Source: a candidate division WOR-3 bacterium (GTDB taxonomy: Bacteria; Hydrothermota; Hydrothermia; JBDRYB01). From it: a DNA stretch of 64,000 nucleotides. The notes under the pieces were generated by a model. It ran no database searches and had not been told where the DNA came from. It was given only the letters and a program-made list of their open reading frames with translations. This document shows positions 2,575-61,685 of this stretch, in pieces; position 1 is the first letter of the stretch; each line of letters starts with the position of its first letter. Where the stretch lies: the NCBI GenBank assembly GCA_039803205.1, contig JBDRYB010000001.1:377913-441912 (forward strand), given 5' to 3'. Both the position numbers and the translations under genes were made by a program.

Positions 2575-3093
2575 CTAGAAAATTCCGCCTATTTCCAGGC
2601 CAACGAACGCGAAACCCATCAGCTTCTCGTCCCCCAGAGAACCTCTGACCGGCAATAGTGAAGCGGAGAGGCTAAGCTCAGCGAACCCATGATCAAACAG
2701 CATTCGTCCAATGAAGGTCTCAGCGCTTAAGCCGCCATAATGGGGTGCTTCTATGGCTCCTCCAAGCTCTTTTATGACGAGACCCAAGCCGCACGGCCCG
2801 AACAATCCTCCCCAGTAGCTCTTATCCCGGTAGAAAACTGGCCCAGCCCCGAGGCTGAACTCTTCAAGGTCAACGGTCTTTCCAACAGCGCTGATTCTAG
2901 TGCGGGTGTAGCCAGGGGATACCCTCAGGCCCCATTTGCTCCCCGTGTTCCATTCAAGGATTCCGGAGCATGAGAAAGCGGTTATAAAAAGCGGAACATC
3001 ATTTTCCCTTGCGGCCTCAAGGAAACCCGAGTATGTCTCGTGAATGCCTATCCTGGCCCCGAAAGCTGAGAACAAAAGGATGAAGGTCACCAT
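2575..3093 (-). CDS. Hypothetical small outer-membrane beta-barrel protein
   Basis: Amphipathic beta strands, C-terminal GLEIGGIF (terminal Phe). Confidence 0.55.
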   Translation of the reverse strand: MVTFILLFSAFGARIGIHETYSGFLEAARENDVPLFITAFSCSGILEWNTGSKWGLRVSPGYTRTRISAVGKTVDLEEFSLGAGPVFYRDKSYWGGLFGPCGLGLVIKELGGAIEAPHYGGLSAETFIGRMLFDHGFAELSLSASLLPVRGSLGDEKLMGFAFVGLEIGGIF

Positions 3094-4124
3094 AATTTCA
3101 ACTCCAGATTGGCTTCTGTATAGAGCCCTTCGGCAAGATCCAGCCTGCCCGCCAGGAATGCCATACTGAGCCTAGCCCGCGAAAGCCTCACCCCGCCCAG
3201 AGCTCCATATCTCCACTGGCCCGATGAATAGTAAGAGACACGAGGCTTTGTGATTAGAGAAACAGGCCCCTTAGCCCAACTAAAGATGAGGCAATCCTGG
3301 ATGGCAAGGAGGTTAAGGGAATCGTCCATGTATGATATAGCGCTTAGCCTTTTGCCAAAACTCAGAGACCCCATGTTCTTCGTGATCTCCGATGAGAAGT
3401 TACCTCCGTATCTCTTTGTGTTTCCGCCAAGGCCGATGCCCATTTCACCGGATAAGGTAAGCTCCGCGCTCTCGCAGAGACTCCAGCGTCTCACAGCGTC
3501 CAGGGTCACGAGTCCCCTTCCAGCCGCGGTGTTGCTCAGGGTGAGGTAAGAAAGCCTAAAGGAACCACCATCTGAGCTGAGCTCAACATCAAGGCCAACG
3601 GGCAAAAGGACATCCCCGGCCACTGATTGGGCGAGCCCGAACCTCATGGTGGAAGAGACCCAGGCCTCGCCCACCGGAAACACGAGGCCGAATCCTGGTA
3701 TGGCAGTTCTGGTGTCCAGGGTCCAATTTCGCCAGGTCCCGAATATACGCTGTCTGTATGAGAAATCCGAATAGGAGAAACCGAAGCACCAGGCCCATGA
3801 ACCCAGGTCTCTCTTGAGGCCTATATCAGCGAGGCTGAGCCTATCAGAGCTCAGGGTATCCTCCCGCATCGCGAAAAGCCCTTTGGCCGCCGTTGACCAG
3901 GGCCCCCGCTTGCCCGTGAACAAGAAGGACAGGGGAGCCGAGCTGAGGTGGAGGTTCTGCGCGCCAAACAGCTCTGGCCGCTCAAACTCCGATAACCTCG
4001 CTATAGGATACTCATCCAGGATGGCTCCTATGTAGCCAGATGACCAAGCCCCTTCGTTTCTCCAGTAAGAAAACCCAAATTCAAGTGAGGCTTCATCGAC
4101 TCCGAGCAAGAGCAACAGGAACAT
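3087..4124 (-). CDS. Hypothetical outer-membrane beta-barrel protein
   Basis: Alternating beta-strand pattern, C-terminal ANLELKLW (terminal Trp). Confidence 0.55.
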   Translation of the reverse strand: MFLLLLLGVDEASLEFGFSYWRNEGAWSSGYIGAILDEYPIARLSEFERPELFGAQNLHLSSAPLSFLFTGKRGPWSTAAKGLFAMREDTLSSDRLSLADIGLKRDLGSWAWCFGFSYSDFSYRQRIFGTWRNWTLDTRTAIPGFGLVFPVGEAWVSSTMRFGLAQSVAGDVLLPVGLDVELSSDGGSFRLSYLTLSNTAAGRGLVTLDAVRRWSLCESAELTLSGEMGIGLGGNTKRYGGNFSSEITKNMGSLSFGKRLSAISYMDDSLNLLAIQDCLIFSWAKGPVSLITKPRVSYYSSGQWRYGALGGVRLSRARLSMAFLAGRLDLAEGLYTEANLELKLW

Positions 4125-4218
4125 GCGAATAATTTAATCCAGGAACGCGAGACGGATCAAATCCTTGGGCCGATTGGATTTTGTTGAAATCTCCCGATAA
4201 ATGCTTCATAATTTGAGC

Positions 4219-9700: not shown

Positions 9701-10819
9701 CTACCATCCCATCAGAACCCCCGCGAAGACCCCTGGTTCCAGGTCTCCGAAGTAATCTCCCCTGGTGATGATGGGGAGGCCTGATGAATCCGAGGATATT
9801 TCCGTGTCCCTGCCGTAGAAATAATAAGCCCCAAGCCTTGCCTCAAAACCCCGGCCAAATGCCCTCCTGACCAGTGGCATTGCCATGAGACTGCCATCAG
9901 AAGCGCAGAGAACCCCGTAAAACGCCAAACTCCATACCACATCGTATGATTTACTGATTAGAAGCCCGATGTAATCCCTCTCGTAAAAGCTGTAAAGCCC
10001 ATAACCGGTTGGGTCTGCTCGGCCGTTGTGGTAATACTCTGCCATCAGGTAAACCTGGCCAGGGAACATCCTGTCATAATTCAAAACATAACGGGGCTCC
10101 GCGCTCGCGTAAAAACACGCCTCAGCCCGGAGCGCGCCGCCAAGGAGGTTTGTGGAAAACCCAGCTCCCACGAGCGAATCCCCCTTGTCGTATCCCCCCT
10201 CAAACACGAGATCAAGGCCTGGAAGGTAGCAAAGGGTTCTCATCCCAGCCTTCCACGCAAGGGAGGAATCGTTATCCGAGGGAGGTGAATAGGCCAGTTC
10301 AACCGAAACCGGGCCAGCCGGCCTCAGCCCAATAAACGCGCAATCTGAGAAAGGCACATCATCCGGCACCACAGAGAGGTTGTTCTGAGGCGTGAATATG
10401 TTCAGAGGGGTCCAGAAGAATGTGGTGCTCCAGTTCAGGACCCTCCTTCCTATTGCGATGGCCAGATAACGGGACTGATATTCAAAGTAGGCTCGCCTTA
10501 TGTAGTCCCTCTGCACAGTCCGCCCCGCGCCTGATGAGGCATCAAGGTCTATGAAACCGGGATCTGACAAGGAAAGCCCCTCGAGAACTGCTGAGTAGGC
10601 GTAAAGGTTTCCGATGTATAGCTCGTGAACCACCTCGGAATAAAGCCTGATGCCAGCGCCAACCGCCTTTATCCGGAGTATGCCCCTTGCCTGACCGAGC
10701 CTGAAGGGGACATAACGGAGATCCGTTGGCCCGAAAGGCCAGAGGACGCTGGTCTCCGTGAACTGGGAGTAAGCATCCCCTCCCATGGAGAACCTGAGAG
10801 CCATGAGCGCGTAAAGCAT
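9701..10819 (-). CDS. Outer-membrane beta-barrel protein of Lol-like operon
   Basis: IRRAYFEY...IGRRVLNW porin-like strands, terminal Trp; last gene of ABC operon. Confidence 0.65.
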   Translation of the reverse strand: MLYALMALRFSMGGDAYSQFTETSVLWPFGPTDLRYVPFRLGQARGILRIKAVGAGIRLYSEVVHELYIGNLYAYSAVLEGLSLSDPGFIDLDASSGAGRTVQRDYIRRAYFEYQSRYLAIAIGRRVLNWSTTFFWTPLNIFTPQNNLSVVPDDVPFSDCAFIGLRPAGPVSVELAYSPPSDNDSSLAWKAGMRTLCYLPGLDLVFEGGYDKGDSLVGAGFSTNLLGGALRAEACFYASAEPRYVLNYDRMFPGQVYLMAEYYHNGRADPTGYGLYSFYERDYIGLLISKSYDVVWSLAFYGVLCASDGSLMAMPLVRRAFGRGFEARLGAYYFYGRDTEISSDSSGLPIITRGDYFGDLEPGVFAGVLMGW

Positions 10820-10827: not shown

Positions 10828-11556
10828 CTATTCCCCTGACCAGCGCTCCATCTGGTTCACATCAAACCTCTCTGCGGGTATTTTGGTGTTGAACTTTATA
10901 TCCATGATGGTGAGAACGGTCTTGTGGCCCGGTTTGTCCCCCGGGATGACTTCCATGAGCGTGGGGAGCCTTCTGCCGCCTATGGTTTTTACCCCAGAAT
11001 ATCTTATGGTCCTGACCCTTTTGCCATCCTCATCATAGTAATCCCCTCTCACAGCTATGTAGCCGGGCATTTCTATCACGAACACTATCTTTCCCCAGAC
11101 AACGGGCGCGCCCTCGCGCGGGATCAGCTCAAGGGTGTAGCGGGTGCCATCGGAGAGCGGCTCCTCGGAGACTATCCTGGAATCATAGTCCTCCGATATG
11201 CTAGATTCGTGCACTAGATCATCGTTCGTGAGGTCCGATCCCATCCAGGGGTCCATCATCATGCTCGGAGGCATCCTCAGCTTCTTGCCCGCTTTTGGCA
11301 AATACATCCATAGGTTCCCCTCCTTTTTCAGGAAGACCGTGCCGTCATCCTTTCCAGTTGAGGACTTGGTTATGACAACCAGGCTCCTGTCCCCACCTCG
11401 TTCCTCCCAGAAGCTCATCTCATAGATGGTCTGATAATCGGGCCGGATGACCTCCATCCTGTAGGAACCAACGCTCGTCGTGCCGCGCATGAGGTCTTCC
11501 GCACCCTTAAGTATCTCCTCTGCTGTAATGCCAAAGATGAACCCAACGAGGATCAT
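10828..11556 (-). CDS. Outer membrane lipoprotein-sorting protein (LolA-like)
   Basis: GTVFLK...LWMYLP...WMGSDLTNDDL, YYDEDGK. Confidence 0.85.
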   Translation of the reverse strand: MILVGFIFGITAEEILKGAEDLMRGTTSVGSYRMEVIRPDYQTIYEMSFWEERGGDRSLVVITKSSTGKDDGTVFLKKEGNLWMYLPKAGKKLRMPPSMMMDPWMGSDLTNDDLVHESSISEDYDSRIVSEEPLSDGTRYTLELIPREGAPVVWGKIVFVIEMPGYIAVRGDYYDEDGKRVRTIRYSGVKTIGGRRLPTLMEVIPGDKPGHKTVLTIMDIKFNTKIPAERFDVNQMERWSGE

Positions 11557-17207: not shown

Positions 17208-17222
17208 GACCCAGCAAAAGCC

Positions 17223-21423: not shown

Positions 21424-22072
21424 TCAATCGCTCACTCCCCCGAACATCAATGTCCCCGTCACCAAGGGAACCATCTGGGATGGCTTTGGCGCGCCAACAA
21501 CATCCCTTCCTTCAACCTGCCACTCCCCTATCATTGGCGAGTAGATCATTTGTCCCTTGATGGCTATGCCGATTATAGCGCCTTCGCCTTGGCCTGTCGC
21601 CATGGGGATGTTGAATTGAGCGCTGAGCGCGCTGGTTGCCGAGAGGCCACCGCCCCCAAGGGTAGCGCTGTAGCGAGGGTTGGCGAGAAGGCTGTCAAAA
21701 TTCTGCCCCCCTTGGACCGGAACCAGGTGAAGGGTGTAACCCATGCCGCCCAAGCCAAATGTAGGGTAGAGCCAGAGCCAATCCAAGGGCGCGAAAAGCC
21801 AACCTATCTCAAAGAAACCTCCGCCTACGCTGAGCTCCGCGGTCGCCGAGTCGGACTCGGTTTTCGGGTAGCTCGCGCCGAAACCGCTGCCGCCGATGAG
21901 AAGCTTGCTTGCTATAGCATAGCCGCCGCCCATGACCAGTCCATAGGAGGACAATGGGTCATAGCCCTGTGTCTCGAGCCTGGAGCTTATTGCAGAGTTG
22001 TCCCAGAACGAGGCCCCTGATGTGAAGCCTCCCATTCCGCCTCCTACTGATAGGAGAGCTATAAAAAAACAT
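21424..22072 (-). CDS. Outer-membrane beta-barrel protein; SD-linked ATG is out of frame by one base in a T7 tract
   Basis: Gly/aromatic beta strands; GGAGG-N5-ATG(22072)-T7. Confidence 0.55.
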
Positions 22073-25068: not shown

Positions 25069-25899
25069 ATGTTTCTAGTTTTGATCAGTCAGATCGTCCA
25101 AAGCGGCAGTTTCGTCCTTGATCTGGGCACAGGCAGGCTAATATCGGAACCGGTGAGCGAAGCAGAGGCTCAGGCTTTTCCACCCCCGCAGGAGATCCTG
25201 CAAAACACCGGGTTTGAGACGGGTTCACTCGCACCGTGGTATCAAGGCCCCGGGAACCACTGGGTCATCACGACCACCTTTCCCCACTCAGGCACATACT
25301 GTGCGACCGACACTGGTAATTACTGGATAAGGCAGGACTTCACCCAGCCGGTTCCTACCGAAAGCATCGTATCCATAACCATATGGAGCAGACAGGCCCC
25401 ATTAGGAGGCGGAGGAAGATTCCTGCAGGCCTTTGACCTTATGTATTCTGACCTGACCTACTACGAGAATGTCGTATATCCTGACCCAACCTGGCGGCAG
25501 TGGAACATAACCAGCTGGCTCACCATGGGCAAGCAGTTGTCAGGTCTAAGGATATGGGGTTTCTGGTGCTCTGACCCATACGATGATTCAACCTACATAG
25601 ACGACATAAGCATAATAGCCAACATGCCCCTTGAATTGGAGGGGGCCAGCCCAGGGCTTCCTATCGCTACCCTATCCGCGTGGCCCTCGGCATTCTCCCA
25701 AACCTGCCGTGTTGATGTGAATGCCCCCTATGAGGCGAGGCTTTGCCTTTATAACTCGTCTGGCGTGTTGGTTCAGGAGCTCTGGCGCGGCCGGGGAAAG
25801 GGAACCGTGTGGATAGGCTCTGAGCTTGGGCCCGGGGGCTACTTCTTGATCTTGGACTACGGGAGAGGAAGGCTCTATAAGAACATAATAAAGAGATGA
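25069..25899 (+). CDS. Secreted CBM-like protein with T9SS-type C-terminal domain
   Basis: NTGFETG..PW...YIDDISI jelly-roll; C-terminal LYNSSG...GGYFL...KNIIKR. Confidence 0.7.
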   Translation: MFLVLISQIVQSGSFVLDLGTGRLISEPVSEAEAQAFPPPQEILQNTGFETGSLAPWYQGPGNHWVITTTFPHSGTYCATDTGNYWIRQDFTQPVPTESIVSITIWSRQAPLGGGGRFLQAFDLMYSDLTYYENVVYPDPTWRQWNITSWLTMGKQLSGLRIWGFWCSDPYDDSTYIDDISIIANMPLELEGASPGLPIATLSAWPSAFSQTCRVDVNAPYEARLCLYNSSGVLVQELWRGRGKGTVWIGSELGPGGYFLILDYGRGRLYKNIIKR

Positions 25900-29396: not shown

Positions 29397-29855
29397 TTAG
29401 GTGGGGTCCGAGAATTTCCTCAGAAATCCTCTTAGATCCTCTTCATCCTCGGAGAATGGCATCTCAAGCCCAGGATAAGGTGGCATGAAGCCGAATATTG
29501 GGATGCCCTTCCTCAGGGCCCAGGATACCTCTGTTAGGGTTCCTGTGCTCATTCCAACCGCTACTACAGCGCGGGATATGTTGACCAAAAGGAAGTTGCG
29601 CATCCCTCCTAGGCCGGTCCCTAGGACTATGTCAACAAAGCGATTTGCCTTTTTGGGGTCCCTTCCTGGGAGAACGCCGATAACCGTTCCGCCCGCCTTT
29701 TTTGCGCCCCGGGAAGCGTGGGCCATAGCGCCCCCAAGGCCACCTGTTGCGAGAATAAAACCTGCTTCTGCTATTGCCCGCCCAGCAATATACGCCCTTT
29801 TCTTTGTCTTCTCGTCTGGCTTTGATGGTCCAACAACCGCTATTATCCCCTTCAT
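29397..29855 (-). CDS. TIGR00725 / LOG-like Rossmann protein
   Basis: GGLGGAM..ASRGAK.AGG.VIGVLP, RN, GTLTE. Confidence 0.85.
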   Translation of the reverse strand: MKGIIAVVGPSKPDEKTKKRAYIAGRAIAEAGFILATGGLGGAMAHASRGAKKAGGTVIGVLPGRDPKKANRFVDIVLGTGLGGMRNFLLVNISRAVVAVGMSTGTLTEVSWALRKGIPIFGFMPPYPGLEMPFSEDEEDLRGFLRKFSDPT

Positions 29856-30463
29856 CTTTCTTCAATCACAATTAACCTGAATCTCGTGTCAGGCCCCTCA
29901 AATCCGGGTTCAAAATGGCCGAGGATGAGCGCGACCCTGCCTTGGTATGAATAGGCCTCCTCAAGCCACCAAGAAAACCCATTACCCGCAAGCACCAAAG
30001 AGAAGATCCGCTTATCCTGCCAGAAGCCCTTTATGTTGCCCTGGGGCCAGATATACGGATCGAGGGTTTGATCTTGGATTATCTCCTCAAGGCAGAGCTC
30101 TCCAGAACCAACCCGGTATCTTTTCGTGATCCTCGTGTATGAAGGCTCGTCTCTCGCGAGGCTGTCCGTGAGCCTTGGCTCCAACTTCTTTCCGGTTTTA
30201 TCTCCTGGAACCCCTTGGGTTTTCGCTGACTCCTTTGCAATTTGAGCCAACCACTCATCCTTGGATTCTTCCTCATAGCAGAGGTCCTCGTAAAAGAACC
30301 TATCAGTTCCGTTGGGCCCTATTACCTCAAGGTATACAAATGGGAAACCGCTCCCATCGTGAACGCCATACTGCAAGAGCGCGGCCTTAGTCCCATCCTC
30401 TGACCAACCCAGGAAAACCGGACAGGAAGCGTCCGCGCTCAGGATAAAGAGAAAAGCGCTCAT
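29852..30463 (-). CDS. Exported protein, DUF2259-like
   Basis: FLGWSEDG...QYGVHDGSGFPF, GFEGPDTRF. Confidence 0.6.
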   Translation of the reverse strand: MSAFLFILSADASCPVFLGWSEDGTKAALLQYGVHDGSGFPFVYLEVIGPNGTDRFFYEDLCYEEESKDEWLAQIAKESAKTQGVPGDKTGKKLEPRLTDSLARDEPSYTRITKRYRVGSGELCLEEIIQDQTLDPYIWPQGNIKGFWQDKRIFSLVLAGNGFSWWLEEAYSYQGRVALILGHFEPGFEGPDTRFRLIVIEER

Positions 30464-31617: not shown

Positions 31618-33200
31618 TGCTTTCGGTTCTGTTGGCATCATTTTTTGTTGATCATACATTCTACCACGCTTATGGTGCAACGGAGTCCATATGGGAGTGG
31701 GGGAAGCTCAGCGGGCCGGGGAACATCTATATCCTGGCCGCTTTCAAGGATGAACGGGATTACCTTATTGGCCGCAGAAACCTCTACGGCGAGGGATTGA
31801 TAAGGCAATCATTTAGGTTTATGGGAGACACTGGAGCCCTCTTTCTCTCCGGAAGCCAGAAAAAACAGGGCGCTGAGAGCTTTCTCGCCACAGAGGGCTC
31901 AGGGGGGTTGGGGCTATTACTCGGGACCAAGCCAACCGCGTGGATGAGGTTCAGCTCCCTGGCCCTTTTGGAGTCAAGAGGGTATTCCCTTGCCGGGAGT
32001 TACCAGGACAACTCAGGCATCCGCGAGGAGCTGGGGATTGAGATTGGCCACCGCTTTATCTCGGGCGAGATGGGCCTCAAAACTGAGCTAAGACCCCTGA
32101 ACGGGGAGCAGAGCCTCAGGGCCAGGCCTGTTGTCCCGCTTCCCATAGGAACCCTGAGCGCGGATGTATACTCAGGGAGGCTCCGCTATCTCACGGTTTC
32201 CGGGGAGGAATCGAAGGGTTTCTACGAGCTCACGCTCTCAGGCGTGTTTCCAGAGGCCGGCCTAATCAGGTTTTCGCCCAGATTTTACGCGAGCCAGGGG
32301 ATCTATTCATTGAACCGTTTGAACTCTGGGGGTTCTGTGGGGGGTGAGCTGGGGTTTGTGGCAAGGGCTAGCGTTGCGGGCGCCCAGTGGGAATGGGAAC
32401 TCCTCAGGGGCAGAGGTGGTAGGGATCTTTATGAGTATCAGGGCGACGAGCAGGAGGCCTGGGCAAGGGCAAACTTTTCTGTGAGAAGGGAATTTTCCCG
32501 CGGCCGCAGCGTTTATGTGAGGTCTTGGATATCCAAAAAAGCCTATGACTACCCTCAGGGTTTCCTGCCGGATGACAGGGACGACAGGGCTCTTTTCTCC
32601 GTGATTGGGCTCCGGATGAGCCTCAGGCCCAACCTCCTCGCTGAGATGGGTTTCACTGCCAGGAGTCAGGACATGGTCTTTCTAAAACCCGAGCGTAGCC
32701 ATGAGACAAGGCATCAGGAGAAGTATTCCATGTTCGGGAGGTGCGCTTGGGGAGGGCCTATCAGTCTGGACTTCAGGGCAGAGGTATCGGCTGTTTACAA
32801 CACCTACAGGTTCAACCCGCAAGCAAATCTCCTAATCAGGTTCTACGAGAACGCTCTCTATTTCAAGACGCGCAGATTTCAGTCCTCCACCAGGTTCCGA
32901 TTGCAGGACCAGGGCGGATACGCGGCTGGAATTTATTACCCCTCAGCCTTTTCACGCGAGATATGGTTACAGCCCCTTCTCAGGGTTTTCAATATTGGCG
33001 AGACAGGGATGTATGTGGCAGGAAGGTATTATATTAGGGACGAGGACGATGGGGAAGGATGGGCTAGAGCGCTTGAAGAGGAGGGGATCGGGGTTTCGGC
33101 CAAAAGGGGGTCTGATTTTGAGGCCAGGGTTCTCCTCGTTAAGAGGACTGGGGAAGAGCCGTTCTGGGACATCGGACTATATTACAATCCTGCCCAATGA
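31617..33200 (+). CDS. Hypothetical large outer-membrane beta-barrel protein
   Basis: Amphipathic aromatic beta strands; TAATG coupling to purE. Confidence 0.55.
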   Translation: MLSVLLASFFVDHTFYHAYGATESIWEWGKLSGPGNIYILAAFKDERDYLIGRRNLYGEGLIRQSFRFMGDTGALFLSGSQKKQGAESFLATEGSGGLGLLLGTKPTAWMRFSSLALLESRGYSLAGSYQDNSGIREELGIEIGHRFISGEMGLKTELRPLNGEQSLRARPVVPLPIGTLSADVYSGRLRYLTVSGEESKGFYELTLSGVFPEAGLIRFSPRFYASQGIYSLNRLNSGGSVGGELGFVARASVAGAQWEWELLRGRGGRDLYEYQGDEQEAWARANFSVRREFSRGRSVYVRSWISKKAYDYPQGFLPDDRDDRALFSVIGLRMSLRPNLLAEMGFTARSQDMVFLKPERSHETRHQEKYSMFGRCAWGGPISLDFRAEVSAVYNTYRFNPQANLLIRFYENALYFKTRRFQSSTRFRLQDQGGYAAGIYYPSAFSREIWLQPLLRVFNIGETGMYVAGRYYIRDEDDGEGWARALEEEGIGVSAKRGSDFEARVLLVKRTGEEPFWDIGLYYNPAQ

Positions 33201-46520: not shown

Positions 46521-47090
46521 ATGATCCTCGTTTCTCTTTTCCTTTACTCGCAGGTGGAGCCTCAGGCAATGGGGCTCGTGGACGCGCTGATAATAGAGGC
46601 GCCAAAGGGCTTGGTTAAGGAGGTTCAGGTTGCCGGCAAGACATACGAGTCCGGATGGAAACCCTGCGGATGGTTGGAGTTCTCTCCGGGGCCGTTCAGC
46701 TTTGTCATTCTGCCGGGGGTGAAGCTTAAGGAGGGCCAGGACATCACCATCGTTTATCCAGATGGCGGAATGAGCATAACGAGGCCCCTGGCAGTGGGTC
46801 AGAAGTTTCTTGCCCTCGCTGATGCGGGCACAGGGACGATCTGCATTATCACCAAGGCCAAGGTATACGAGATAGTTGCAACCCAAGGAGAAGATGAGGT
46901 CTGGTATGCTGATCTCTCTGAGTTCTGGAAATACGACGAGCCAGAATCAGGGGTGGAGCTTCTTGAGGCCGGGGATTGTGGGATATGGGGATACTATGAG
47001 GAGGGTTTATCTCTGAGTCGGGGAACCCTTTCGGTTGAGATCACGGATGCCTCCGGGAAGAAAACCGCTATAAGCGTCGAGGCGCGGTAG
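46521..47090 (+). CDS. Hypothetical exported protein
   Basis: MILVSLFLYSQ start with TATAAT 6 nt upstream. Confidence 0.55.
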   Translation: MILVSLFLYSQVEPQAMGLVDALIIEAPKGLVKEVQVAGKTYESGWKPCGWLEFSPGPFSFVILPGVKLKEGQDITIVYPDGGMSITRPLAVGQKFLALADAGTGTICIITKAKVYEIVATQGEDEVWYADLSEFWKYDEPESGVELLEAGDCGIWGYYEEGLSLSRGTLSVEITDASGKKTAISVEAR

Positions 47091-47131: not shown

Positions 47132-48751
47132 CTATCTAGTAACCGTGAATTTATCCGTAAGCACCCTCTCACCCGCTATTGCTCTGAGGATGTAGACGCC
47201 GGGCTTCTCAATCACTACGGGAATGTTGTGGGCTCCAGAAGCCAATTCCTCAGCCAGCTCAAAAACGAGCGCGCCCTTGGCATCGTAAACCGATATCCTA
47301 ACCAGGCAGGGCTCGGGCAAAAGGAGGGCTATGTTTCCTTTGCCACGCGTAGGGTTGGGAGAGAACCCCAGGCAAAAATCCCTTACCGGCCTTGTCTCAT
47401 CGGCAACCAAAGGCCCCGTCCCATCCCACAGATACACCCAGCACGAGAGGTCAGAAGAGGACGCCTCAAGAAGGCCATCGCCATCAGCATCCCCGAAAGA
47501 AACAGAGGTGTGGAAGGCATATTCAGAATTGCCCCAATCCCAGACTATCGTCCCGGGGGATCCGAAGTATCCGCCCCCAGAAATAACCTTAAACCTCACT
47601 CCAGCAACGGTTGCCACATCAAGGGTGTTATCACCCGTGAACCTCCCAACAGCAGGGGTGGGATCAAAGAAATAGTATGTGGCTCCGAGGGAGGTTGAGA
47701 AGAAGTTAGAGCCTCCGCCCTGAACATCAATGCAGTCTATCTTTGAGCTGAAGGCATCGTGGATGACGACCTCGGCAAACCCGTCTCCCGTGAAGTCTCC
47801 GGTTGATGGAGAGGAATAATTGAATGTGGTATCTGGACCAGGATAGCTCCTCAGGAAAAGAAGCGACCCCCCAGCGCTGAGAACTCCCACCTTCGCTGAA
47901 TCATTGGCGTAAACTATTTCAAGGCCAGGAGAGGATGTGATGTTATCTATCGCTGGAGTTGAACGCACATTCTTTCCGGTCTGATAAGCCCAGATCTGAG
48001 ACCCAGTAAGCGCGTTCAGGCAATAAATGTTCCCGTTGTCAGAACCGCAGACGAGCTCGTATGTGCCGTTGCCGTCAAGGTCGCCAAGTGCAGGAGAGGA
48101 TTGCACATAGGCACCCGTAGGGAAGGACCACCTTTGGTTGTATCCACTACCCGTCCACTCATAGCAACGGATGTCGTTGTCAATTCCGACGAAGATCTCT
48201 GGAAGGCCATCGTTATCAACATCGCAAAGCGCTGGAGAGGAAGCAACCTGATTGCCCGTGTTTATCCAGAGCTCTGTGCCACCGGATTGGTTAAGTATCC
48301 AGAACCCGTTGCTGTGGCCCTCGTCCGATGATGCGCCCACTGCTATTTCATCAACCCCGTCTCCGTCAAGATCCCCTATTGCCGGAGAAGAATAAAGCAC
48401 TACCTGGCCGCCAAGCCTTGTTTGATAGCCGTTGTAATTAAAGATATATATACCCTCGTTCACCGTCTCCTCGTAGTCTCCCCATGTGTCGTATTTCTCG
48501 CTTCCTGGCGAACCAACCAGAACCTCCATCCTGGCGTCGGAGTTGATGTCCTTAAAGGCGGGCGTTGAATACAGGACTATGTCTTCGCCACCATCAGCGT
48601 CCTCTATGAGGTATTTCCATATCAGGGTTCCCGTGCTGAAAGCCCCTTGGCCCGGTGTCCTCCCCGTTCTCTGATAGTCGTGCTTGAACATCCTCCACGC
48701 CGGATCAGCAGGCGAATAGGCCTGCGAAACCAAAGATAGCATCAACAACAT
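47132..48751 (-). CDS. Secreted FG-GAP/PQQ-like beta-propeller protein with T9SS-type CTD
   Basis: Repeated SSPA.GDLDGDG..E; C-terminal PNP...VYDAKG...GVYIL...KFTVTR. Confidence 0.85.
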   Translation of the reverse strand: MLLMLSLVSQAYSPADPAWRMFKHDYQRTGRTPGQGAFSTGTLIWKYLIEDADGGEDIVLYSTPAFKDINSDARMEVLVGSPGSEKYDTWGDYEETVNEGIYIFNYNGYQTRLGGQVVLYSSPAIGDLDGDGVDEIAVGASSDEGHSNGFWILNQSGGTELWINTGNQVASSPALCDVDNDGLPEIFVGIDNDIRCYEWTGSGYNQRWSFPTGAYVQSSPALGDLDGNGTYELVCGSDNGNIYCLNALTGSQIWAYQTGKNVRSTPAIDNITSSPGLEIVYANDSAKVGVLSAGGSLLFLRSYPGPDTTFNYSSPSTGDFTGDGFAEVVIHDAFSSKIDCIDVQGGGSNFFSTSLGATYYFFDPTPAVGRFTGDNTLDVATVAGVRFKVISGGGYFGSPGTIVWDWGNSEYAFHTSVSFGDADGDGLLEASSSDLSCWVYLWDGTGPLVADETRPVRDFCLGFSPNPTRGKGNIALLLPEPCLVRISVYDAKGALVFELAEELASGAHNIPVVIEKPGVYILRAIAGERVLTDKFTVTR

Positions 48752-48979: not shown

Positions 48980-50539
48980 CTAGTAGAGCCCCTGAACCTG
49001 CTTGTCCTTTGGCCACTCAACGGAGAAGCTTATCTTGGCCTCCCACTTGTCAAGCGCCTTCATCTTTAAGGTCCAGGAGTATATCTTCTTGTCCTTGTCC
49101 TCGGAGTCTGGCTTTGGCTCTATCTTTACCCCTGAGACAGTTATGTCCTTTGTCTTCGGAAGGGGAACCGCCTCATAGAGAACCAGGGTTATCCCCTTCT
49201 TGAGGTAGTTTTCAACCGTTATCTTGTATCCGAGCTCAATCTTGCGCTTATTCCCGAATATCCCCGCCTTGCTCTTGAGCTCCTTGAGGGGCTCGCGTGT
49301 TATCTTTATCCTCTCGTCAGCGCCAAACGCGAGGGTGTCTGCCTGACCAGGAGCGAAATCCGGAAGGTATGTCTTCCCAGTATATTCATCACCAACATAG
49401 AGGAGACACTCTCCGGGAAGATAATGGAAATCAGAGCTGTTCTCAAAGGCACCCGTCAAGTATGCGGTTGGATCAAGCCTCGGATAAGCGTAGAACTCAA
49501 ACTGGGCCGGGAACTCATCGGATGTCACGAGTATCTTCCTCGGTTCCTCGCCGGTCTTAACGGTGAGCCTTTCCCTTATGGGATAGAGCAAGGATACGCC
49601 CGTTTCAACCGGAGGGAGAGGGGCTTCTTCCATTTCCACTTCCTCTTCTGCCATGGTGGGGGCTGCCCTCGGGGCCATTTTTTCGTATCCCCCATAGCCA
49701 TAGTAAGGTTCATAAATGTCCACATACCACGGCTCAAGCGGCGGTGCCTGGCGGATACTGGGCTTCGTGGTTGAGAGGACCATCCTCACATTCTTCCAAT
49801 CCTCTCCTGTTTTCTGCCAGATAAGGGCGTTGAATACTAATTCAACCTTCTCGTTTTCTGGGAGCGCTCGGAGCTCGTAGCTAGGTGCCCAACCAGCTCC
49901 ATAAGGAACTATGTAGCTTATTCCGAATTTGTAGCTCCCTGCCTTTGTTACTCTCACGGAAACTTCCACGCTCTTGCGGGTCTTTACGAACTCCTGTTCG
50001 GCATATAGCTTCTGCTGATAGGCATTGAGGGTATCGTTCAGGGCTGGCAGGAGCCTATCTATCTCCCTTCTGCGCGCCCTTACCTTTGCCATCTCAGCCC
50101 CTAGAAAGTCAAGGCCAGCCTGCCAGCTCTTCGCGTCAACCCTTCCGGAAATGAGTTCCTGCGAGGCTATCTGCGGCCCCCCAACTTCTATGGAAGAGAG
50201 ATACTTCTCCTTAGCGGAAAGAACATCCTTCTCATCGTTCAGGGCCTTTATCCTCTCCTGATAAAGCTTTACGGTGTCCTCAAGGGCTTTTATTCTGGAC
50301 GAGGGCTCCCTCATATAGCCCTGAACAACCTTTACCTCGCTTATCTTAACCCCTGAGGGGCTTTCCAGCCTGAGAGAAGCCTCGTCAAGGCCCCCCGGAA
50401 GGTCTTCAAACCTTATGACCGTGTCTCCTCCCAGGTTCACGGTCGCTACCCTGTGTATGTAGGCACCCGATGGATAAACGACCACCGAGTCCGGAGCCGA
50501 GCTCACTGATATGAGTATGGCGGATGCTATTCCAAACAT
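48980..50539 (-). CDS. DUF4140/DUF4139 (MuiA-like) protein
   Basis: SVVVYPSGA...LP..LDE.SLR, W.PSY, QKTGEDWKNV..LST. Confidence 0.85.
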   Translation of the reverse strand: MFGIASAILISVSSAPDSVVVYPSGAYIHRVATVNLGGDTVIRFEDLPGGLDEASLRLESPSGVKISEVKVVQGYMREPSSRIKALEDTVKLYQERIKALNDEKDVLSAKEKYLSSIEVGGPQIASQELISGRVDAKSWQAGLDFLGAEMAKVRARRREIDRLLPALNDTLNAYQQKLYAEQEFVKTRKSVEVSVRVTKAGSYKFGISYIVPYGAGWAPSYELRALPENEKVELVFNALIWQKTGEDWKNVRMVLSTTKPSIRQAPPLEPWYVDIYEPYYGYGGYEKMAPRAAPTMAEEEVEMEEAPLPPVETGVSLLYPIRERLTVKTGEEPRKILVTSDEFPAQFEFYAYPRLDPTAYLTGAFENSSDFHYLPGECLLYVGDEYTGKTYLPDFAPGQADTLAFGADERIKITREPLKELKSKAGIFGNKRKIELGYKITVENYLKKGITLVLYEAVPLPKTKDITVSGVKIEPKPDSEDKDKKIYSWTLKMKALDKWEAKISFSVEWPKDKQVQGLY

Positions 50540-50651: not shown

Positions 50652-51431
50652 TCAGAACTCAGCCAGGCCGAGATAGTGAGAGAGGAGTTGGGTGATGAAT
50701 ATCCTCTCGTTTCTCACATAAAGGCTGTCCATCGTGTATTCCTTGATGGTTGCCCCCGCAGGAACATTGTATTTCTCAGGGGGTATGGGAACATTATCCT
50801 TTACCTCTGTCGCGTCCATGATGATGGTCTTGCCCTGTGGGGAGAGGAACTCGGTCCCGAGCACTATCTTTTTCCAGACGAACAGCCTCATGTCCCCGTT
50901 CATGAGCTTATAGACCTCGCACTGCTTGCCAGCGACGGTCTTGCGCACCCCGGACTCCTCGGTCATATTAACCAGATAGTCCCTGTAAGCGAGGCCCAGG
51001 TTCATCTGTTTTGAGAACTTCTCTATCTTTGGGCCCAAGGTCAGGCGCTCGTTGGCGGGAGTCATATCCCATATCTGCTTCAGGGTGAGAAACATCAGGT
51101 TCGGGCGCTTTGAGCCCTCCATCTTGTTCATGTTGATGGAGATGATGTAGTCCGGCATGATTATGTCCAAGCCCTTCAGGGTCATCTTTGTGCCATGGGC
51201 AGGGGTCTTCTCGTAGTATATTACCTGCTTCCAGCCGTAGTCATCAAAGTAGAGCTCCTGAATGCCCTCCATATCTCCGCTATACTTATACTTGATTATG
51301 CCGCTCTTGATGTCGTATGGCCTGTATATCTCCTCAAGCTTGGCCTTGGTGTAGTCTATCTTCTTGCCGCACCCGGCGGCCAGAAGAACTGCCAACCATG
51401 CAAACAAGCCCGTTGCCGCAAATCTCTTCAT
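50652..51431 (-). CDS. Hypothetical lipoprotein
   Basis: LAAGC lipobox; YFDDYG, VAGKQC. Confidence 0.7.
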   Translation of the reverse strand: MKRFAATGLFAWLAVLLAAGCGKKIDYTKAKLEEIYRPYDIKSGIIKYKYSGDMEGIQELYFDDYGWKQVIYYEKTPAHGTKMTLKGLDIIMPDYIISINMNKMEGSKRPNLMFLTLKQIWDMTPANERLTLGPKIEKFSKQMNLGLAYRDYLVNMTEESGVRKTVAGKQCEVYKLMNGDMRLFVWKKIVLGTEFLSPQGKTIIMDATEVKDNVPIPPEKYNVPAGATIKEYTMDSLYVRNERIFITQLLSHYLGLAEF

Positions 51432-55021: not shown

Positions 55022-55222
55022 AAACAAATCTCCAAAGCCTATTGTCAGGGGCCAGGACAAACCATCTACCTCCCAATGTAGACGAAGATGAACCACCCTG
55101 ATTCCCGGTTATTCTGCCCTTGTAATGTCCTAAGTCCTTGCCCATCAAGACCATGCAACCATGCTATCATACTACCTCTTCTTGGCATCTTCTAAGTCCT
55201 TGACCCACAAAGACTTAGGCCG

Positions 55223-55502: not shown

Positions 55503-58121
55503 ATGATTTATTTGCTTTTGCTTGTTCTTTTCGAGACGGGGCCCATTGCTATTCTGGTTCAGGATGAGGTTAGGCCAGGAATTCAGACCTCACTTGATGT
55601 CTATTTGGCTGACCTTGCAAATGAAGGCTACCGGCCTATAGTAGTAGAAGTGTCCAAAACGGACTCTTGCCAGATTATAAGAACAATACTTCAAGGACTT
55701 TATTCATCGGCTGGCATAGAGGGGGCTGTTCTCATTGGCGACATAGAGGTCGCTAAGTACTTGAAATTTAGCCTTGATTACGCTTACACGGACCTTTATT
55801 ACATGGATCTGGATGGGATGTGGATAGACGAAAATGGGGACGGGATATTTGATTTGCATACAGGAAACAAGGAGCCGGAGATATGGGTTGGCAGGCTAGA
55901 TTGTGCTACATTAAGTTTCAATGGCGCCAACCAAGTTGATCTTCTGAATGCTTATCTCCTAAGGAACCACAACTATCGCTCAGGCGTTACACATCTTTCC
56001 GAGAAAGCCCTCATCTTCCTTGATGACGATGATCAGTCTTTCGGTCACGATACAATTATTCCCCGTTATCTCGATCCGGTTTTCTGGCAGAAGGTTCTGG
56101 TATCAGGCCATGACTCAACGGATGCGGAACATTACTCAACAATGCTTGGATATACTTATGGTTTGATCTGGGTAGGCGCTCATTCCGTTGCTACTGCCCA
56201 CTATTTTACCTCTGACACAGGCTATTCAATATTCAGAAGCATCCAGCTCCCAGACATAGATCCGCAGACACCCTTTTATTTTGTGGACGGATGTAGCACT
56301 GGAGGGTTTGAGTCTCCTGATTATCTGAGCGGTTGGTATGTGTTTAACCCAGAAGGCGGTGGCCTTTTGGCCCTGGCTGGGACATATGGATTCACAATGG
56401 TTCACAGTAGCATATTCTTTGAAGTGCTCGGAGCCGGGAAAACCTTTGGCGAAGCCCTCAAAGAGTGGTATGAGAAAGTAGGTATTATCAGCGGGAATTT
56501 TTATGTGAACCTTCTCCTCGGCGACCCCACCCTGCGCCTGCGCCGTGAGATGGCTAGGAGGGAAGTCCTTTTCTATGACCAGGCCGGAGACCTTGACCTC
56601 ACGCCGGATCCTGGCGAGACCCTTCAGGTCTATGTGAAGCTGAGGAACCAGACAGAGAACCAGACCATAACGGGAATAACGGCAAAGCTCTCCTGCGGGA
56701 ATGGCCTGATAACCGTGCTTGACTCCATGGCCTTCTACGGGGATTTCGCTCCAGGGGGTGAGAGGATAAACTCCACGCCATTCAGGATCGCAATATCCCC
56801 ATCAGCCCAGAGGGGCCTGAGGATCCCGATTGACACGAGGATAAGCTCAACAGATGGCCGTGAGTGGCTAACAGGGTTTTACTTAAACATAGAAAAACCT
56901 TATCTCACTTACTTCTGGCAGATGTGGGATGACCCGGACGGGAACCTTGACCCAGGAGAGACATCTCCCCTTTATGTCCAGATACTCTACGATACCCTCT
57001 GGGCCTCAGGGGATACTGGGAAGGTTGGGGCCTGCGCCAGCAATGTCAGGGGAATTCTGAGGAGCCTTGACACGGCAATAACGGTCATAGACTCCATAGC
57101 AAACTACGGGATAGTCTCATGGGGAGCGAGAGCTTGGCCAACTGACCCGTTCAGGCTGAGAGCCTCCTCAGGGATAACCCAAAGCCCTTATCCTGCCCTT
57201 CTTGAGCTTGAGCTCAGGACAAACGAGGGAGAACCCCAGCTGGATACCTTCTCAATCACCGTTGGGGATTATCCCTACTTCTACGATGACTTTGAGTCAG
57301 GGGCAAAGGGATGGCTCCACGAACCCCTCCTTCCTGGCTGGAACGACGAATGGCACCTTGAGGATTACAGGCACAACTCAGGGGGGTGGAGTTGGAAGTG
57401 CGGGGGAGGTGCAGATGGCGGATACGGCACTTTGGACGGATGTATTCTTGAATCACCGCCGGTGCTTATTGGAGAGAATTGGGCTATGATTCTTTGGTAT
57501 TATGTTGATGTCTACAAGTTTGAAGGCATCCACGATATTCCTCCGTGCTATTCCGACGGCGGCTTCGTAGAGGTGAATTCAGGGGAGACATGGAATCTTT
57601 TGGAACCCGTTGGTGGTTATCCAGCGATGATTTACATCAACAGCAACAATTACGGACTCCACCCGAAGCCAGGCATCGGAGGGTCTGATTATGGTTGGAA
57701 CAGCCTTATTTTCCCCCTGAATAGTCTCACGGGGAGAAATCTCCAGTTCCGTATAACATTCTTCTCTACAGAAGATGGTGGATATTCCAAGGAAGGCCTC
57801 TACATTGACGACTTCTATGTGGGCCCCGCGACGGGCATAGCCGAGGGGCCTAAAGGCCGGAGTTTTTCGCTTTCCGTGGCTCCAAACCCCGCCAAAGGCA
57901 AGGTAAAGATAAGCTTCACGGTTCCCGATGGCGTGCCCTATTCCCTCAAGCTCTATGACCCAGCAGGGAGGATGGTCGGGGTGATACACGAAGGCCCAGG
58001 GCGCGAGGGCCCTGGGTTAACCGGAGAGATACACTGGGAGCCAGATCTGAGGCCAGGGGTCTATTTCCTGAGGCTTGAGGCAGGGGGAAGGGCTCTAACA
58101 GAGAAGATGGTAATCAAATAG
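55503..58121 (+). CDS. Peptidase C25 (gingipain-like) with Ig-like repeats, carbohydrate-binding-like module and T9SS CTD
   Basis: GAVLIGD, TDLYYMDLDG, PEIWVGRL, GAHS/DGC dyad, NLLLGDP; CTD APNP...LYDPAGR...GVYFL. Confidence 0.85.
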   Translation: MIYLLLLVLFETGPIAILVQDEVRPGIQTSLDVYLADLANEGYRPIVVEVSKTDSCQIIRTILQGLYSSAGIEGAVLIGDIEVAKYLKFSLDYAYTDLYYMDLDGMWIDENGDGIFDLHTGNKEPEIWVGRLDCATLSFNGANQVDLLNAYLLRNHNYRSGVTHLSEKALIFLDDDDQSFGHDTIIPRYLDPVFWQKVLVSGHDSTDAEHYSTMLGYTYGLIWVGAHSVATAHYFTSDTGYSIFRSIQLPDIDPQTPFYFVDGCSTGGFESPDYLSGWYVFNPEGGGLLALAGTYGFTMVHSSIFFEVLGAGKTFGEALKEWYEKVGIISGNFYVNLLLGDPTLRLRREMARREVLFYDQAGDLDLTPDPGETLQVYVKLRNQTENQTITGITAKLSCGNGLITVLDSMAFYGDFAPGGERINSTPFRIAISPSAQRGLRIPIDTRISSTDGREWLTGFYLNIEKPYLTYFWQMWDDPDGNLDPGETSPLYVQILYDTLWASGDTGKVGACASNVRGILRSLDTAITVIDSIANYGIVSWGARAWPTDPFRLRASSGITQSPYPALLELELRTNEGEPQLDTFSITVGDYPYFYDDFESGAKGWLHEPLLPGWNDEWHLEDYRHNSGGWSWKCGGGADGGYGTLDGCILESPPVLIGENWAMILWYYVDVYKFEGIHDIPPCYSDGGFVEVNSGETWNLLEPVGGYPAMIYINSNNYGLHPKPGIGGSDYGWNSLIFPLNSLTGRNLQFRITFFSTEDGGYSKEGLYIDDFYVGPATGIAEGPKGRSFSLSVAPNPAKGKVKISFTVPDGVPYSLKLYDPAGRMVGVIHEGPGREGPGLTGEIHWEPDLRPGVYFLRLEAGGRALTEKMVIK

Positions 58122-59369: not shown

Positions 59370-60155
59370 TTAATCCAGGATTATATCGGGATTCAAATCA
59401 ATCTCCTCTTTCAGGAGATCCCTAATTGCATCGTCGTCTCTCGGCAGAACGAACCTCGGTTTGCCGTTCAGGTAGAGGCCCCTGGCAGTGCCGTATTTCT
59501 CTAGGGCCTCAGGGTTTGACTCCACCTTTATCACCTGGATCCGGTCCCCGAACTCCCTTGCTATCCTCTCTGTCCGTGCGAACAGCTCAGGCGCTATGGG
59601 GCACAGGAGATTCATGAACATGTGAACGGTTAATTTATCGCCTGGCCCCTTTGGCACGCGCTCCTCAGTGAACCAATATTCAACGGTTTCCTGGCTCAGG
59701 GGATAAAACATGACGAATGTGCCATCGTGGTCTCCGAGGATCTTGAAACCTGATTTCTGGAAGTGAGAGCGATGCATGTAACCCTCGTAGTCTGTGGCTA
59801 AAACGAGGATCCCTTTTGCCCCCTGATCCCTGAGCTTCTCCGCGAGGGCACCGAGCATTCCCCTCCAAATCCCCCTTCTGCGGCTCGCGCTCTTCACCCA
59901 GACGCAGGATATAATCGCGACTTTGGGTTCTGTCCTCAGCTGGCCCAGCGACCTCTCCGACCAGGCCCAGAGTATCTCTCCCACGATATTCCCCGCATCA
60001 TCCTCTGCCTGAAAGGATTCATAGTGTTTCCCGAGGTTCTCCCCTAGCCAGGCTCTTGAGGCCTCCAAGGCCTCAGGCCCGAATATTCCCCATGCCTCGC
60101 CCGCGCACGGGTAAGACCTCGCCGTATCCTCCTTTTTGGCTTGATAGAAGCGCAT
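59370..60155 (-). CDS. GNAT acetyltransferase with C-terminal thioredoxin-like domain
   Basis: ISCVWV....RRRGI...ML, F.KSGF; C-terminal LCP...YG...GLYLNG. Confidence 0.7.
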   Translation of the reverse strand: MRFYQAKKEDTARSYPCAGEAWGIFGPEALEASRAWLGENLGKHYESFQAEDDAGNIVGEILWAWSERSLGQLRTEPKVAIISCVWVKSASRRRGIWRGMLGALAEKLRDQGAKGILVLATDYEGYMHRSHFQKSGFKILGDHDGTFVMFYPLSQETVEYWFTEERVPKGPGDKLTVHMFMNLLCPIAPELFARTERIAREFGDRIQVIKVESNPEALEKYGTARGLYLNGKPRFVLPRDDDAIRDLLKEEIDLNPDIILD

Positions 60156-60158
60156 GCT

Positions 60159-61685
60159 TCACCTCCCTATGAACTTGAAAATGAGGGGCTCTCCTTCCCA
60201 GATGAGTCTCAGGAAATAGACCCCCCTTGATAGGCCTCTTATCTTCCAGAGGGTCTCTCCGGGCTTCATTTGATGGGTTTGCACCATCCTCCCTGCCGGG
60301 TCGTATACGCTCACCTCAACGCCGGAGTGAACCGAGGGCAGGATCAGGGCGAGACTGGTCTGGTCAAAGAATGGCCTGAGCGAAGCCCCGCTCGTCTCGG
60401 TTGCGCCGGTGATTACCGAGAACCTTACCCCATCACCTATCACCACCCTTGTTGAGTCCGGCACCAGGCCCCAGTTACCCAGCTCAACATAGCCAGCCTG
60501 GCCCTCATTGAATCCGAATGTTCCGAGGCTAATCCACTGGCCGCCGCCGGTTGTCTGGTCCACATAGAAGGTGTCAACCCCTCCGGCGTGATGAACCACA
60601 TAAGGGGCGTTCTGTGCCCTGTTCCATCCCTCTGTGAACCAGACAGAGACCTCGTATTGGCCTGTCTGGGGCAGGTCTGGCATAAAAAGGAGCCTTTTAA
60701 TTCCTGTTCCATCGGACCATATGTAGTTTAGGCCGTAATACTGGGGGGACCACTCCGAGACGCGCCAGTTGCCCTGCGTGAAACACCAGGGATCGAGGTT
60801 GTCTATGATGATCTCTGGCCAAGCTCTATATAGGGTGGCAGAAAGCCCGGATGTGTCTGCACTGAGCGCTATGTTCGTGATGAACGCGGAGTTGTATCCC
60901 TGGGATGAGAAATACAGGTCATATGTGTCTTGGATCAGGCTATCCAATCTGAATGGCCCCGGCCCCTGCAGGGCTTTGTAGGCAACCAGCGAGTCCGAAT
61001 AGTTTTTGTAGCAGTAGAGGTGAATGGTCTGGGTTTGTGGCGGGGAAAGGCTCACCGTTCCTGAAATGCTGTATGCCTGCTGGAAGACCGGCGGGGTTAT
61101 GCGCAGGTGGCCAGAAACCCCCCTAGCGTAAGCGAAGCCCTCTCGCTCATCGTGCCTGTTCCAATGGGCGTAGAACCTGTATGATTCGTCATATCCATCG
61201 CGATAATCAATAAAAGATGCCTCTCCAAGGATGGCTGGCATCACGGTCTCCCTTAGGACATAGAAGTCGGCCGTTTGTGCGCCCCGGTCCGGGTATCCAA
61301 AGGCCCAGAGGAGCCAAGGGTGGGTGCTATCCCTCATGGCGAAGGAGTTCGCGGAACCGTATGTGTAGCAGTATGTCTCTGTTCCCTGAACCTGGGTGTT
61401 GTAGGCGTTGTGATGTATGGAGACGAATCTGTCAAAACCTTGGGAGTTCGCGTAATAGACCCTGTCCGCCAGAGATACATAGACATCGGTTGTCCTCGTC
61501 ATGCCCACTATCACCGTATCCCCAGGAAGGCCTGCCCTCTCAAAGTAATGCTTTGCCCAGAAAGCCACATCAAGGTTTGCCTGTTTCTCCATGTAATAAA
61601 GTCCTGTAGCACCTGGGTCAGAGCCGCCGTGGCCAGGGTCTATACAGATGGTCCAAGTCACTGCAAAGAGGATGTTCAAAAACAT
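60159..61685 (-). CDS. Secreted N-acetylmuramoyl-L-alanine amidase (Amidase_3) with accessory beta domain and T9SS CTD
   Basis: IDPGHGG.DPGA, EK, SIHHN, LGEA; C-terminal VYDPAGR...GVYFL; ATG 61685 inferred. Confidence 0.85.
   Translation of the reverse strand: MFLNILFAVTWTICIDPGHGGSDPGATGLYYMEKQANLDVAFWAKHYFERAGLPGDTVIVGMTRTTDVYVSLADRVYYANSQGFDRFVSIHHNAYNTQVQGTETYCYTYGSANSFAMRDSTHPWLLWAFGYPDRGAQTADFYVLRETVMPAILGEASFIDYRDGYDESYRFYAHWNRHDEREGFAYARGVSGHLRITPPVFQQAYSISGTVSLSPPQTQTIHLYCYKNYSDSLVAYKALQGPGPFRLDSLIQDTYDLYFSSQGYNSAFITNIALSADTSGLSATLYRAWPEIIIDNLDPWCFTQGNWRVSEWSPQYYGLNYIWSDGTGIKRLLFMPDLPQTGQYEVSVWFTEGWNRAQNAPYVVHHAGGVDTFYVDQTTGGGQWISLGTFGFNEGQAGYVELGNWGLVPDSTRVVIGDGVRFSVITGATETSGASLRPFFDQTSLALILPSVHSGVEVSVYDPAGRMVQTHQMKPGETLWKIRGLSRGVYFLRLIWEGEPLIFKFIGR

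Follow-up and report, generated by a model that had tools for sequence, protein, structure and literature searches.

The 64,000-nt stretch of DNA analysed here (the window) comes from G000, the 2.3-Mb genome of an uncultured candidate division WOR-3 bacterium from a hot spring, and an earlier note on it had pointed to a dozen envelope and secreted proteins that begin with an ultra-short, uncharged hydrophobic leader. Sequence comparison within this genome, among its relatives and with more distant homologues indicates that these leaders are a real and new variant of the Sec signal peptide, and that they probably serve as minimal Sec/signal peptidase I (SPase I) signals in which the hydrophobic core doubles as the cleavage site. 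What is new is their decoupling from the signal recognition particle (SRP), the occurrence of Lys-bearing short forms, an end motif common with classical signals, a SecY residue and leaderless starts. In what follows, G-numbers denote genomes, f-numbers WOR-3 families and X1-X4 sequencing runs, all from one study; the host class is the source genome's class within phylum WOR-3, with 39 genomes. The closest SecY matches that carry a name belong to Hydrothermota and WOR-3, which places the genome in phylum WOR-3; its class is probably Hydrothermia.

All twelve listed starts proved to be ATG codons at the positions given, followed by 6-11 hydrophobic or small residues without Lys or Arg, and each has support that is independent of the encoded peptide. 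Seven are preceded by a Shine-Dalgarno (SD) site (11556, with AAGG, and 55503, 25069, 48751, 3093, 10819 and 22072), three by a leaderless-type -10 box ending 6 nt before the ATG (61685, 4124 and 46521), and two overlap the stop codon of the upstream gene (31617 and 30463). The in-frame TAG said to lie above the LolA-like gene at 11556 is real, and the mature start of this protein aligns at residue 10, where homologues bear signals of 18-30 residues. Upstream of the amidase gene at 61685 the frame is open for 95 codons in the window; its G032 orthologue (80% identical) begins at the same short start, 15 codons below a stop. At 46521 an alternative upstream ATG (46503) would add six residues, still without Lys or Arg. 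The gene at 22072, whose leader the earlier note had read after repairing the frame, carries one extra T in a short T run after the start codon (~22063); sister-strain contigs from X3 and X4 lack this base and have the intact frame, confirming the leader, and X1 and X2 match the window. The extra T may represent strain-level inactivation or possibly phase variation, and homologues of this gene bear a short leader in G125 and classical ones in G053 and G068. A Pfam match speaks for export in only five of the twelve proteins, the other seven having no family; for the protein at 31617, outer-membrane barrels are the closest ESM Atlas clusters to which a family is assigned (score 0.92), which is a lead only.

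Genome-wide, gene starts were assigned with a simple purpose-made start caller, and cargo was defined by the type IX secretion system (T9SS) tail profile TIGR04183, which has 147 matches in the source genome, 142 of them inside called genes. Among these 142, 84 begin with a short uncharged leader, 12 with a longer uncharged one, 18 with a classical signal and 12 with a short leader containing Lys or Arg (mostly compact classical signals), with 16 other or miscalled. The same classifier called short uncharged leaders at 391 of 7397 internal Met positions (5.3%) and at 188 of 3000 random positions. Among 124 complete T9SS-tail genes that have a hydrophobic N-terminus, 94 show no Lys or Arg in front of or within it. 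These 94 uncharged cases use the first possible ATG, GTG or TTG after a stop in 68 instances, have an in-frame stop no more than 10 codons upstream in 60, and combine ATG with an SD of at least 5 nt in 74; in eight, a start up to 15 codons further upstream is available and would bring in Lys or Arg, with an SD that never exceeds 3 nt. True starts further upstream, a possibility raised in the earlier note, are thus not borne out by the start, stop and SD data or by the G032 amidase stop. Nor do the proteins as a set look cytoplasmic, given that the cargo includes TonB-receptor-like (by eye), LolA-like and T9SS-tail proteins. A further 291 genes without a T9SS tail class as short uncharged, among them cytoplasmic enzymes that are false positives.

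The T9SS-tail proteins include two paralogue families of 60 and 41 members, and in several of the paralogue families listed, short and classical leaders precede the same mature start. Two signal classes therefore coexist as had been proposed, the short form standing beside classical and lipoprotein signals. C-terminal Phe or Trp proved a weak proxy for barrel proteins (33/256 short, 15/180 classical and 45/604 signal-less proteins), and PorV-like paralogues were noticed by eye. The -10 box is a genuine element in the source genome: of the genes lacking an SD, 56 of 131 with a short leader and 198 of the other 675 have the pattern TANNNT 5-7 nt ahead of the start codon, the distances peaking sharply at 6 nt. 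In all, TANNNT ends ~6 nt before the ATG in 254 of 806 SD-less genes, and many genes of the source genome look leaderless.

Leader anatomy was examined in the 94 complete uncharged T9SS-tail genes with a rule that requires a small residue at -1 and hydrophobic residues at -2 and -3 and is blind to +1; the rule used for classical sites favours Ala at -1 and polar residues at +1. A site could be placed in 69 of the 94, giving leaders of 6-13 residues in 68 and of 8-11 residues in 54 of these 69, and in LolA-like proteins the length anchored on homologues is 7-12 residues. Positions 4-8 consist to 66-80% of Leu, Ile, Val, Phe or Met, partly by class definition. Leu occupies -3 in 47 of the 69, compared with only 22, 22 and 26 at -2, -4 and -5, and Gln stands at +1 in 19/69 (28%) and 38/129 against a background of 2.7%, a roughly tenfold enrichment that nonetheless concerns a minority. 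Independently of any site rule, the string hydrophobic-hydrophobic-small-Gln occurs within residues 6-15 in 22 of the 94 proteins and in 1, 1 and 0 in downstream windows. The predicted consensus leader end is Leu-hydrophobic-[Ala/Ser/Gly], often followed by Gln. Classical signals on the same cargo, with a site placed in 26 of 30 at 13-23 residues, have Leu at -3 in 14/26 and Gln at +1 in 12/26. The small residue at -1 is imposed by the site rule; the preferences for Leu at -3 and Gln at +1 are not imposed and agree with the genome's classical signals. In the largest paralogue family the leader boundary shifts by several residues.

The short leaders can be told apart from lipoprotein and Tat signals. 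Each of the 33 lipobox proteins whose start is strong keeps a Lys/Arg n-region, with the Cys at 14-28, and the short leaders show no lipobox, Cys not being among their common +1 residues; a few uncharged lipobox-like starts occur in relatives. No Arg pair was found in the short leaders, and with it no twin-arginine (Tat) motif. The absence of Lys and Arg that the earlier note had made part of the definition is typical, but some equally short leaders carry one Lys at position 2-3, so that shortness, and not absence of charge, defines the class.

Homologues within WOR-3 and beyond point to a patchy distribution of the short form. Among LolA-like proteins the twelve closest homologues have short leaders (one start over-called, one under-called), and of 106 matches ranked below P0014, 102 have at least 18 residues, two are short in the manner of the class and two are seemingly truncated. 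Outside WOR-3, LolA-like homologues carry classical signals in 9 of 9 named genomes and in each of the 29 homologues that could be read, out of 30 loci, in the phylum of G155; equally short homologues in other phyla, which the earlier note had named as a danger to its reading, thus did not appear. Within WOR-3, counted by eye over 68 LolA-like homologues, short leaders of 7-12 residues occur in 19 of 24 from the host class, 7 of 41 from families with SRP54 matches and none of three from other SRP-less families (f24, f26). An automatic short/long count over 100 sampled WOR-3 regions, a rough guide that includes cytoplasmic false positives, found short leaders common in f14, f17, f18, f19, f25 and f27 and rare or absent in f12, f13, f15, f16 and f24. 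In the DUF4139 family short leaders were seen by eye in 13 of 150 homologue clusters, with taxa known for two, WOR-3 and Ca. Stahlbacteria. In the P0264 cluster (Planctomycetota) a DUF4139 protein begins with 13 uncharged residues and then Cys; it may be a case beyond WOR-3 and is a lead only. Counts of a DNA pattern as a measure of short leaders were rejected, and per-genome pattern counts are not used as evidence: when matches were sampled, a plausible gene start underlay only 2 of the 20 taken from SRP-positive WOR-3 families and none of the 30 taken from the phylum of G153, most matches being due to chance. Similar starts may occur in Planctomycetota, Gemmatimonadota and Sphingomonadaceae.

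Collectively, these comparisons indicate that short leaders are patchily distributed over the whole phylum WOR-3 and that short and long leaders interchange within orthologue and paralogue families at the same mature start. The lineage-specific character claimed in the earlier note holds insofar as the homologues read outside WOR-3 are classical, but fails for any one narrow lineage. A restriction to WOR-3, for which two families (LolA-like and DUF4139) speak, is not proven.

The source genome encodes SecA, SecY, one LepB and peptide deformylase (def), and the presence of the last leaves a loss of deformylation, with retained formyl-Met, unsupported. No SRP54-family protein was found in the source genome. 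A strong PF00448 (Ffh/FtsY) match is present in 0 of 39 host-class genomes (best E ~1e-6) as opposed to 96 of 112 other WOR-3 genomes, and SRP RNA (RF00169) in 0 of 15 host-class genomes as opposed to 14 of 21 others. YidC, searched as a control, was recovered in 35 of 36 genomes (14 of 15 in the host class) and was missing only from the source assembly, probably through an assembly gap; on account of this gap the absence of SRP from G000 alone means little, while the class-wide absence is solid. A variant SRP as reader of the leaders, one of the earlier suggestions, therefore finds no footing in a host class without Ffh, FtsY or SRP RNA. Further apparent SRP losses lie outside the host class in f11, f24, f26 and single genomes of f23 and f32, and in f17, f21 and f25 the best SRP54 match reaches only ~1e-40 to 1e-47 with no small SRP RNA, where SRP may be divergent or decaying.

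LepB is single in 39 of 39 host-class genomes and unremarkable by eye, and a second S26-like match in the source genome is, by eye, a LexA-type repressor. A variant signal peptidase, likewise proposed before, was not found, nor was a second one. SecY carries an Arg at 399 (Ser405 of E. coli, at the start of transmembrane helix 10, TM10) in 14 of 14 host-class genomes, where 16 of 16 others have Ser or Thr. This Arg lies three residues before the pore-ring Ile408, the pore-ring Ile residues being kept, and is the only striking machinery change found; an effect on channel gating, suggested by analogy with known mutants, is a hypothesis. The source secY (G000:C28, L004:1459-2772) differs further, in TM9, TM10 and the C-terminal tail, by changes typical of the class. 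SecA has some class-specific columns, none of which could be linked to a function; in secA (G000:C32, L003) a class-typical four-residue insertion lies near 139-142, and residue 464 is Trp, compared with Phe or Tyr in other WOR-3. The inspection of the export machinery recommended earlier thus yielded a class-wide SecY change, SecA columns of no assigned function, an ordinary LepB and no Ffh.

Because classical signals end alike and the host carries one ordinary LepB, cleavage by SPase I is the likeliest reading of the leader end, and the motif shared with classical signals, Leu-x-small|Gln, together with the free exchange of the two forms, leads us to consider it likely that the leaders are minimal Sec/SPase I signal peptides. 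The leader would consist of Met and some 5-10 hydrophobic residues, of which the last three (Leu, a hydrophobic residue and Ala, Ser or Gly) would form the cleavage site, the n-region and the polar c-region having been dropped. SecA would bring the precursor to SecYEG. As the leader appears too short for a membrane-crossing helix, its N-terminus may be drawn into the lateral gate or the bilayer, or the peptide may be extended. Such burial would come at little cost only for a leader that has no charge or a single Lys, and this would account for the coupling of short and uncharged; in vitro, hydrophobicity can make up for the lack of a positive charge, and short peptides are substrates of SPase I. 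The single LepB would then cut behind the small residue, often exposing Gln. In the host class the Arg in TM10 of SecY may ease gating in the manner of prl mutations, favouring the short form without being required for it. Lipoproteins of the source genome appear to retain the charged n-region throughout.

Several observations weigh against this minimal Sec/SPase I reading. No site could be placed by rule in 25 of the 94 leaders, and the sites that were placed are predictions from purpose-made rules with built-in residue preferences. By eye, nothing specific to the class stands out among 36 aligned LepB sequences, leaving the enzyme's reach to so short a substrate unexplained. Glutaminyl cyclase was not found in the source genome, itself an incomplete assembly as the missing yidC shows (PF05096 had no matches, and three M28 proteins look un-cyclase-like by eye). 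The SecY Arg is absent from the short-leader-using families f13, f14, f17 and f27, and the T9SS is known here from tail matches and by-eye PorV-like paralogues, not from its secretion machine. A more far-reaching form of the same idea, which we advance tentatively, is that WOR-3 possess a second Sec mode, in which a leader of 7-11 residues, too short for loop insertion, would enter SecY with its N-terminus buried or head-first and still be a LepB substrate; in the host class, which lacks SRP, secretion and membrane proteins alike would be handled by just SecA and a naturally prl-like SecY with Arg at the Ser405 position, so that the short form could have become the majority.

The alternative that survives best, though we hold it to be unlikely, is that the leaders are exported through Sec uncleaved, either passing through or staying as a short membrane or chaperone-binding tag. 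A leader below ~13 residues could not, as a helix, be anchored in the cytoplasm and also reach the periplasmic active site, and the ordinary LepB, the missing glutaminyl cyclase and the shifting boundary in the largest paralogue family all fit such a tag. An uncleaved tag, however, would not need Leu at -3, a small residue at -1 or enriched Gln at +1, all of which match the genome's own classical signals; the shared end thus favours cleavage over the "perhaps uncleaved" of the earlier note.

Somewhat less probable again is a factor other than LepB or SecA that arose in WOR-3, such as an unrecognised peptidase, a chaperone or an insertase (for example a YidC-dependent route). The host class lives without SRP, so targeting must have been rewired somehow; YidC is nearly universal in the genomes searched, and the uneven spread of short leaders (common in some families, 0/8 in f12, 0/4 in f15 and almost none in f13 and f16) could track a gene that was not sought. 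Against such a factor, both leader classes share one end motif and swap within protein families, and the second S26-like protein appears to be a repressor.

We regard it as improbable that the short leaders are a mere consequence of SRP loss, with signals shrinking once SRP no longer captured hydrophobic N-termini. The LolA-like counts do lean toward the SRP-less class, as does an automatic count that includes false positives, in which uncharged short leaders make up 50 of 157 signal-like starts in the class and 39 of 213 in SRP-positive families. Yet G037, G042, G052 and G126 have strong Ffh/FtsY-family matches (best E 1e-72 or lower) together with SRP RNA and still use short leaders, which rejects SRP loss as sole cause (G008 is ambiguous, with a best E of 3e-41 and no RNA match); the three LolA-like proteins of the SRP-less f24 and f26 are all classical; and related genomes are not independent. 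SRP loss or the SecY change would at most have made the short form more frequent. Misassigned starts, or cytoplasmic proteins whose first strand is hydrophobic, are a most improbable explanation, to which the cytoplasmic enzymes among the non-T9SS calls, the signal-less members of the DUF4139 family and the eight genes with a charge-adding upstream start lend something, but which the nearby upstream stops, the SD, -10 box or overlap behind every window start and the conservation of the short form in relatives contradict.

The minimal Sec/SPase I signal proposed here resembles and departs from several known systems. Canonical Sec/SPase I signals have an n-h-c layout (PMC5875014) and 20-30 residues (PMC3509430). 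The short leaders are like them in being N-terminal, with a hydrophobic core, a small residue at -1, envelope or secreted cargo, and SecA, SecY and LepB present; they differ in having 6-13 residues, mostly no basic n-region, no polar c-region and Leu instead of a small residue at -3. Divergent SPase I motifs are described for Spirochaetes, Rickettsiales and Thermotoga, with Leu or Ile at -3 known for spirochaete sites (Payne et al. 2012, PMC3509430), and these motifs share with the short leaders an Ala-poor core, a hydrophobic residue at -2, Leu or Ile at -3 and Ala or Ser at -1; the signals in that study differ in having 15-35 residues and early basic residues, as its selection filter demanded, and short leaders would have been excluded by that filter. 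Gln after SPase I cleavage is known as the Bacteroidetes Q-rule (PMC5837995, PMC10653852). Gln is here likewise enriched after the predicted site on T9SS-tail and other exported proteins; it reaches ~28-30% (short) and 46% (classical) as against ~71% in Bacteroidetes, whose signals are of normal length, and no glutaminyl cyclase was found alongside it in the source genome.

Life without SRP has precedents in Leptospira, Dehalococcoides and SAR86, which lack Ffh, FtsY and SRP RNA and keep Sec and signal peptidase (PMC4758666); the available text of that paper does not mention short signals, and one Leptospirales LolA-like homologue (L011) is classical. Among prlA (SecY) mutants of E. coli, I408N in TM10 gives a prl phenotype (PMC3164448), and the host-class SecY is similar in having a polar change in TM10 near the pore-ring Ile408 and different in that its Arg is natural, class-wide and at 405, with the pore-ring Ile kept. 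No known prl allele at SecY 405 was found in the literature searched. A prlA L407R allele may exist, although a literature search for it found nothing. We likewise found no description of such a leader class in the literature searched, a search that left subscription papers largely outside and excluded supplements.

Window genes with short leaders and two internal controls, with coordinates counted along the window.
Gene product	Coordinates	Strand	Leader, start and basis
LolA-like protein (PF17131, Pfam E 2.8e-45)	10828..11556	-	leader ~9 residues (11530-11556); SD AAGG; in-frame TAG two codons upstream
Amidase_3 + Golvesin_C + T9SS-tail-like protein	60159..61685	-	leader ~8 residues; amidase domain from residue 13; -10 box 6 nt upstream
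Peptidase C25 + T9SS tail (TIGR04183, Pfam)	55503..58121	+	leader ~10 residues; SD AAGGAG; stop 4 codons upstream
FG-GAP propeller + T9SS tail (TIGR04183, Pfam)	47132..48751	-	leader ~9 residues, then Gln; SD GGAGGT
276-aa protein	25069..25899	+	leader ~7 residues, then Gln; SD GGAGGT; no Pfam match; export inferred only
345-aa protein ending in Trp, probable outer-membrane barrel (by eye)	3087..4124	-	leader ~8 residues; stop 3 codons upstream; -10 box 6 nt upstream; no Pfam match
172-aa protein ending in Phe, probable small barrel (by eye)	2575..3093	-	leader ~9-10 residues; SD GGAG; overlaps end of upstream gene; no Pfam match
372-aa protein ending in Trp, downstream of LolA-like gene	9701..10819	-	leader ~7 residues; SD GGAG; no Pfam match
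527-aa probable outer-membrane barrel	31617..33200	+	leader ~7-8 residues; TAATG overlap with upstream stop
DUF2259-like predicted secreted protein (Pfam E 1e-4, below cut-off)	29852..30463	-	leader ~9-10 residues; ATGA overlap with upstream stop
189-aa protein	46521..47090	+	leader ~11 residues, then Gln; -10 box 6 nt upstream; no Pfam match
Probable barrel protein (by eye), frameshifted	21424..22072	-	leader ~8 residues in intact strain; SD GGAGGT
DUF4140/DUF4139 protein, extra case absent from the earlier note's list	48980..50539	-	leader ~11 residues; SD AAGGAG; DUF4140 from residue 19
Internal control: T9SS-tail protein	62055..62930	+	classical 18-residue signal; sequence, Pfam
Internal control: lipoprotein-type signal with Lys/Arg n-region	50652..51431	-	

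Other features of the window were noted in passing. At 14750-17223 a DNA methyltransferase gene and, beside it, what is by eye probably an endonuclease gene form an island that a sister-strain contig in run X3 skips. Two short multi-copy elements at 18612-18669 and 24916-25000 have high depth and many loose ends, the second lying just upstream of the 25069 gene, with similar sequence upstream of other T9SS-tail genes (by eye). At 53461-55154 a tRNA is followed by integrase-like and excisionase-like open reading frames, apparently a small or decayed integrated element (by eye).

If the reading of the leaders as minimal Sec/SPase I signals is true, the lower limit of a working bacterial signal peptide would drop from ~15 to ~7 residues, with hundreds of natural examples, and a tag far smaller than textbooks and prediction rules allow for would probably suffice for protein export. 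Filters demanding 15-35 residues and a basic residue, such as that of PMC3509430, would miss these proteins, and WOR-3 secretomes are probably undercounted. The roles of the n- and c-regions and the need for loop insertion would become directly testable, and very short cleavable tags could serve protein secretion work. The host class would also offer a lineage that naturally lacks SRP and in which a change next to the SecY pore ring is fixed.

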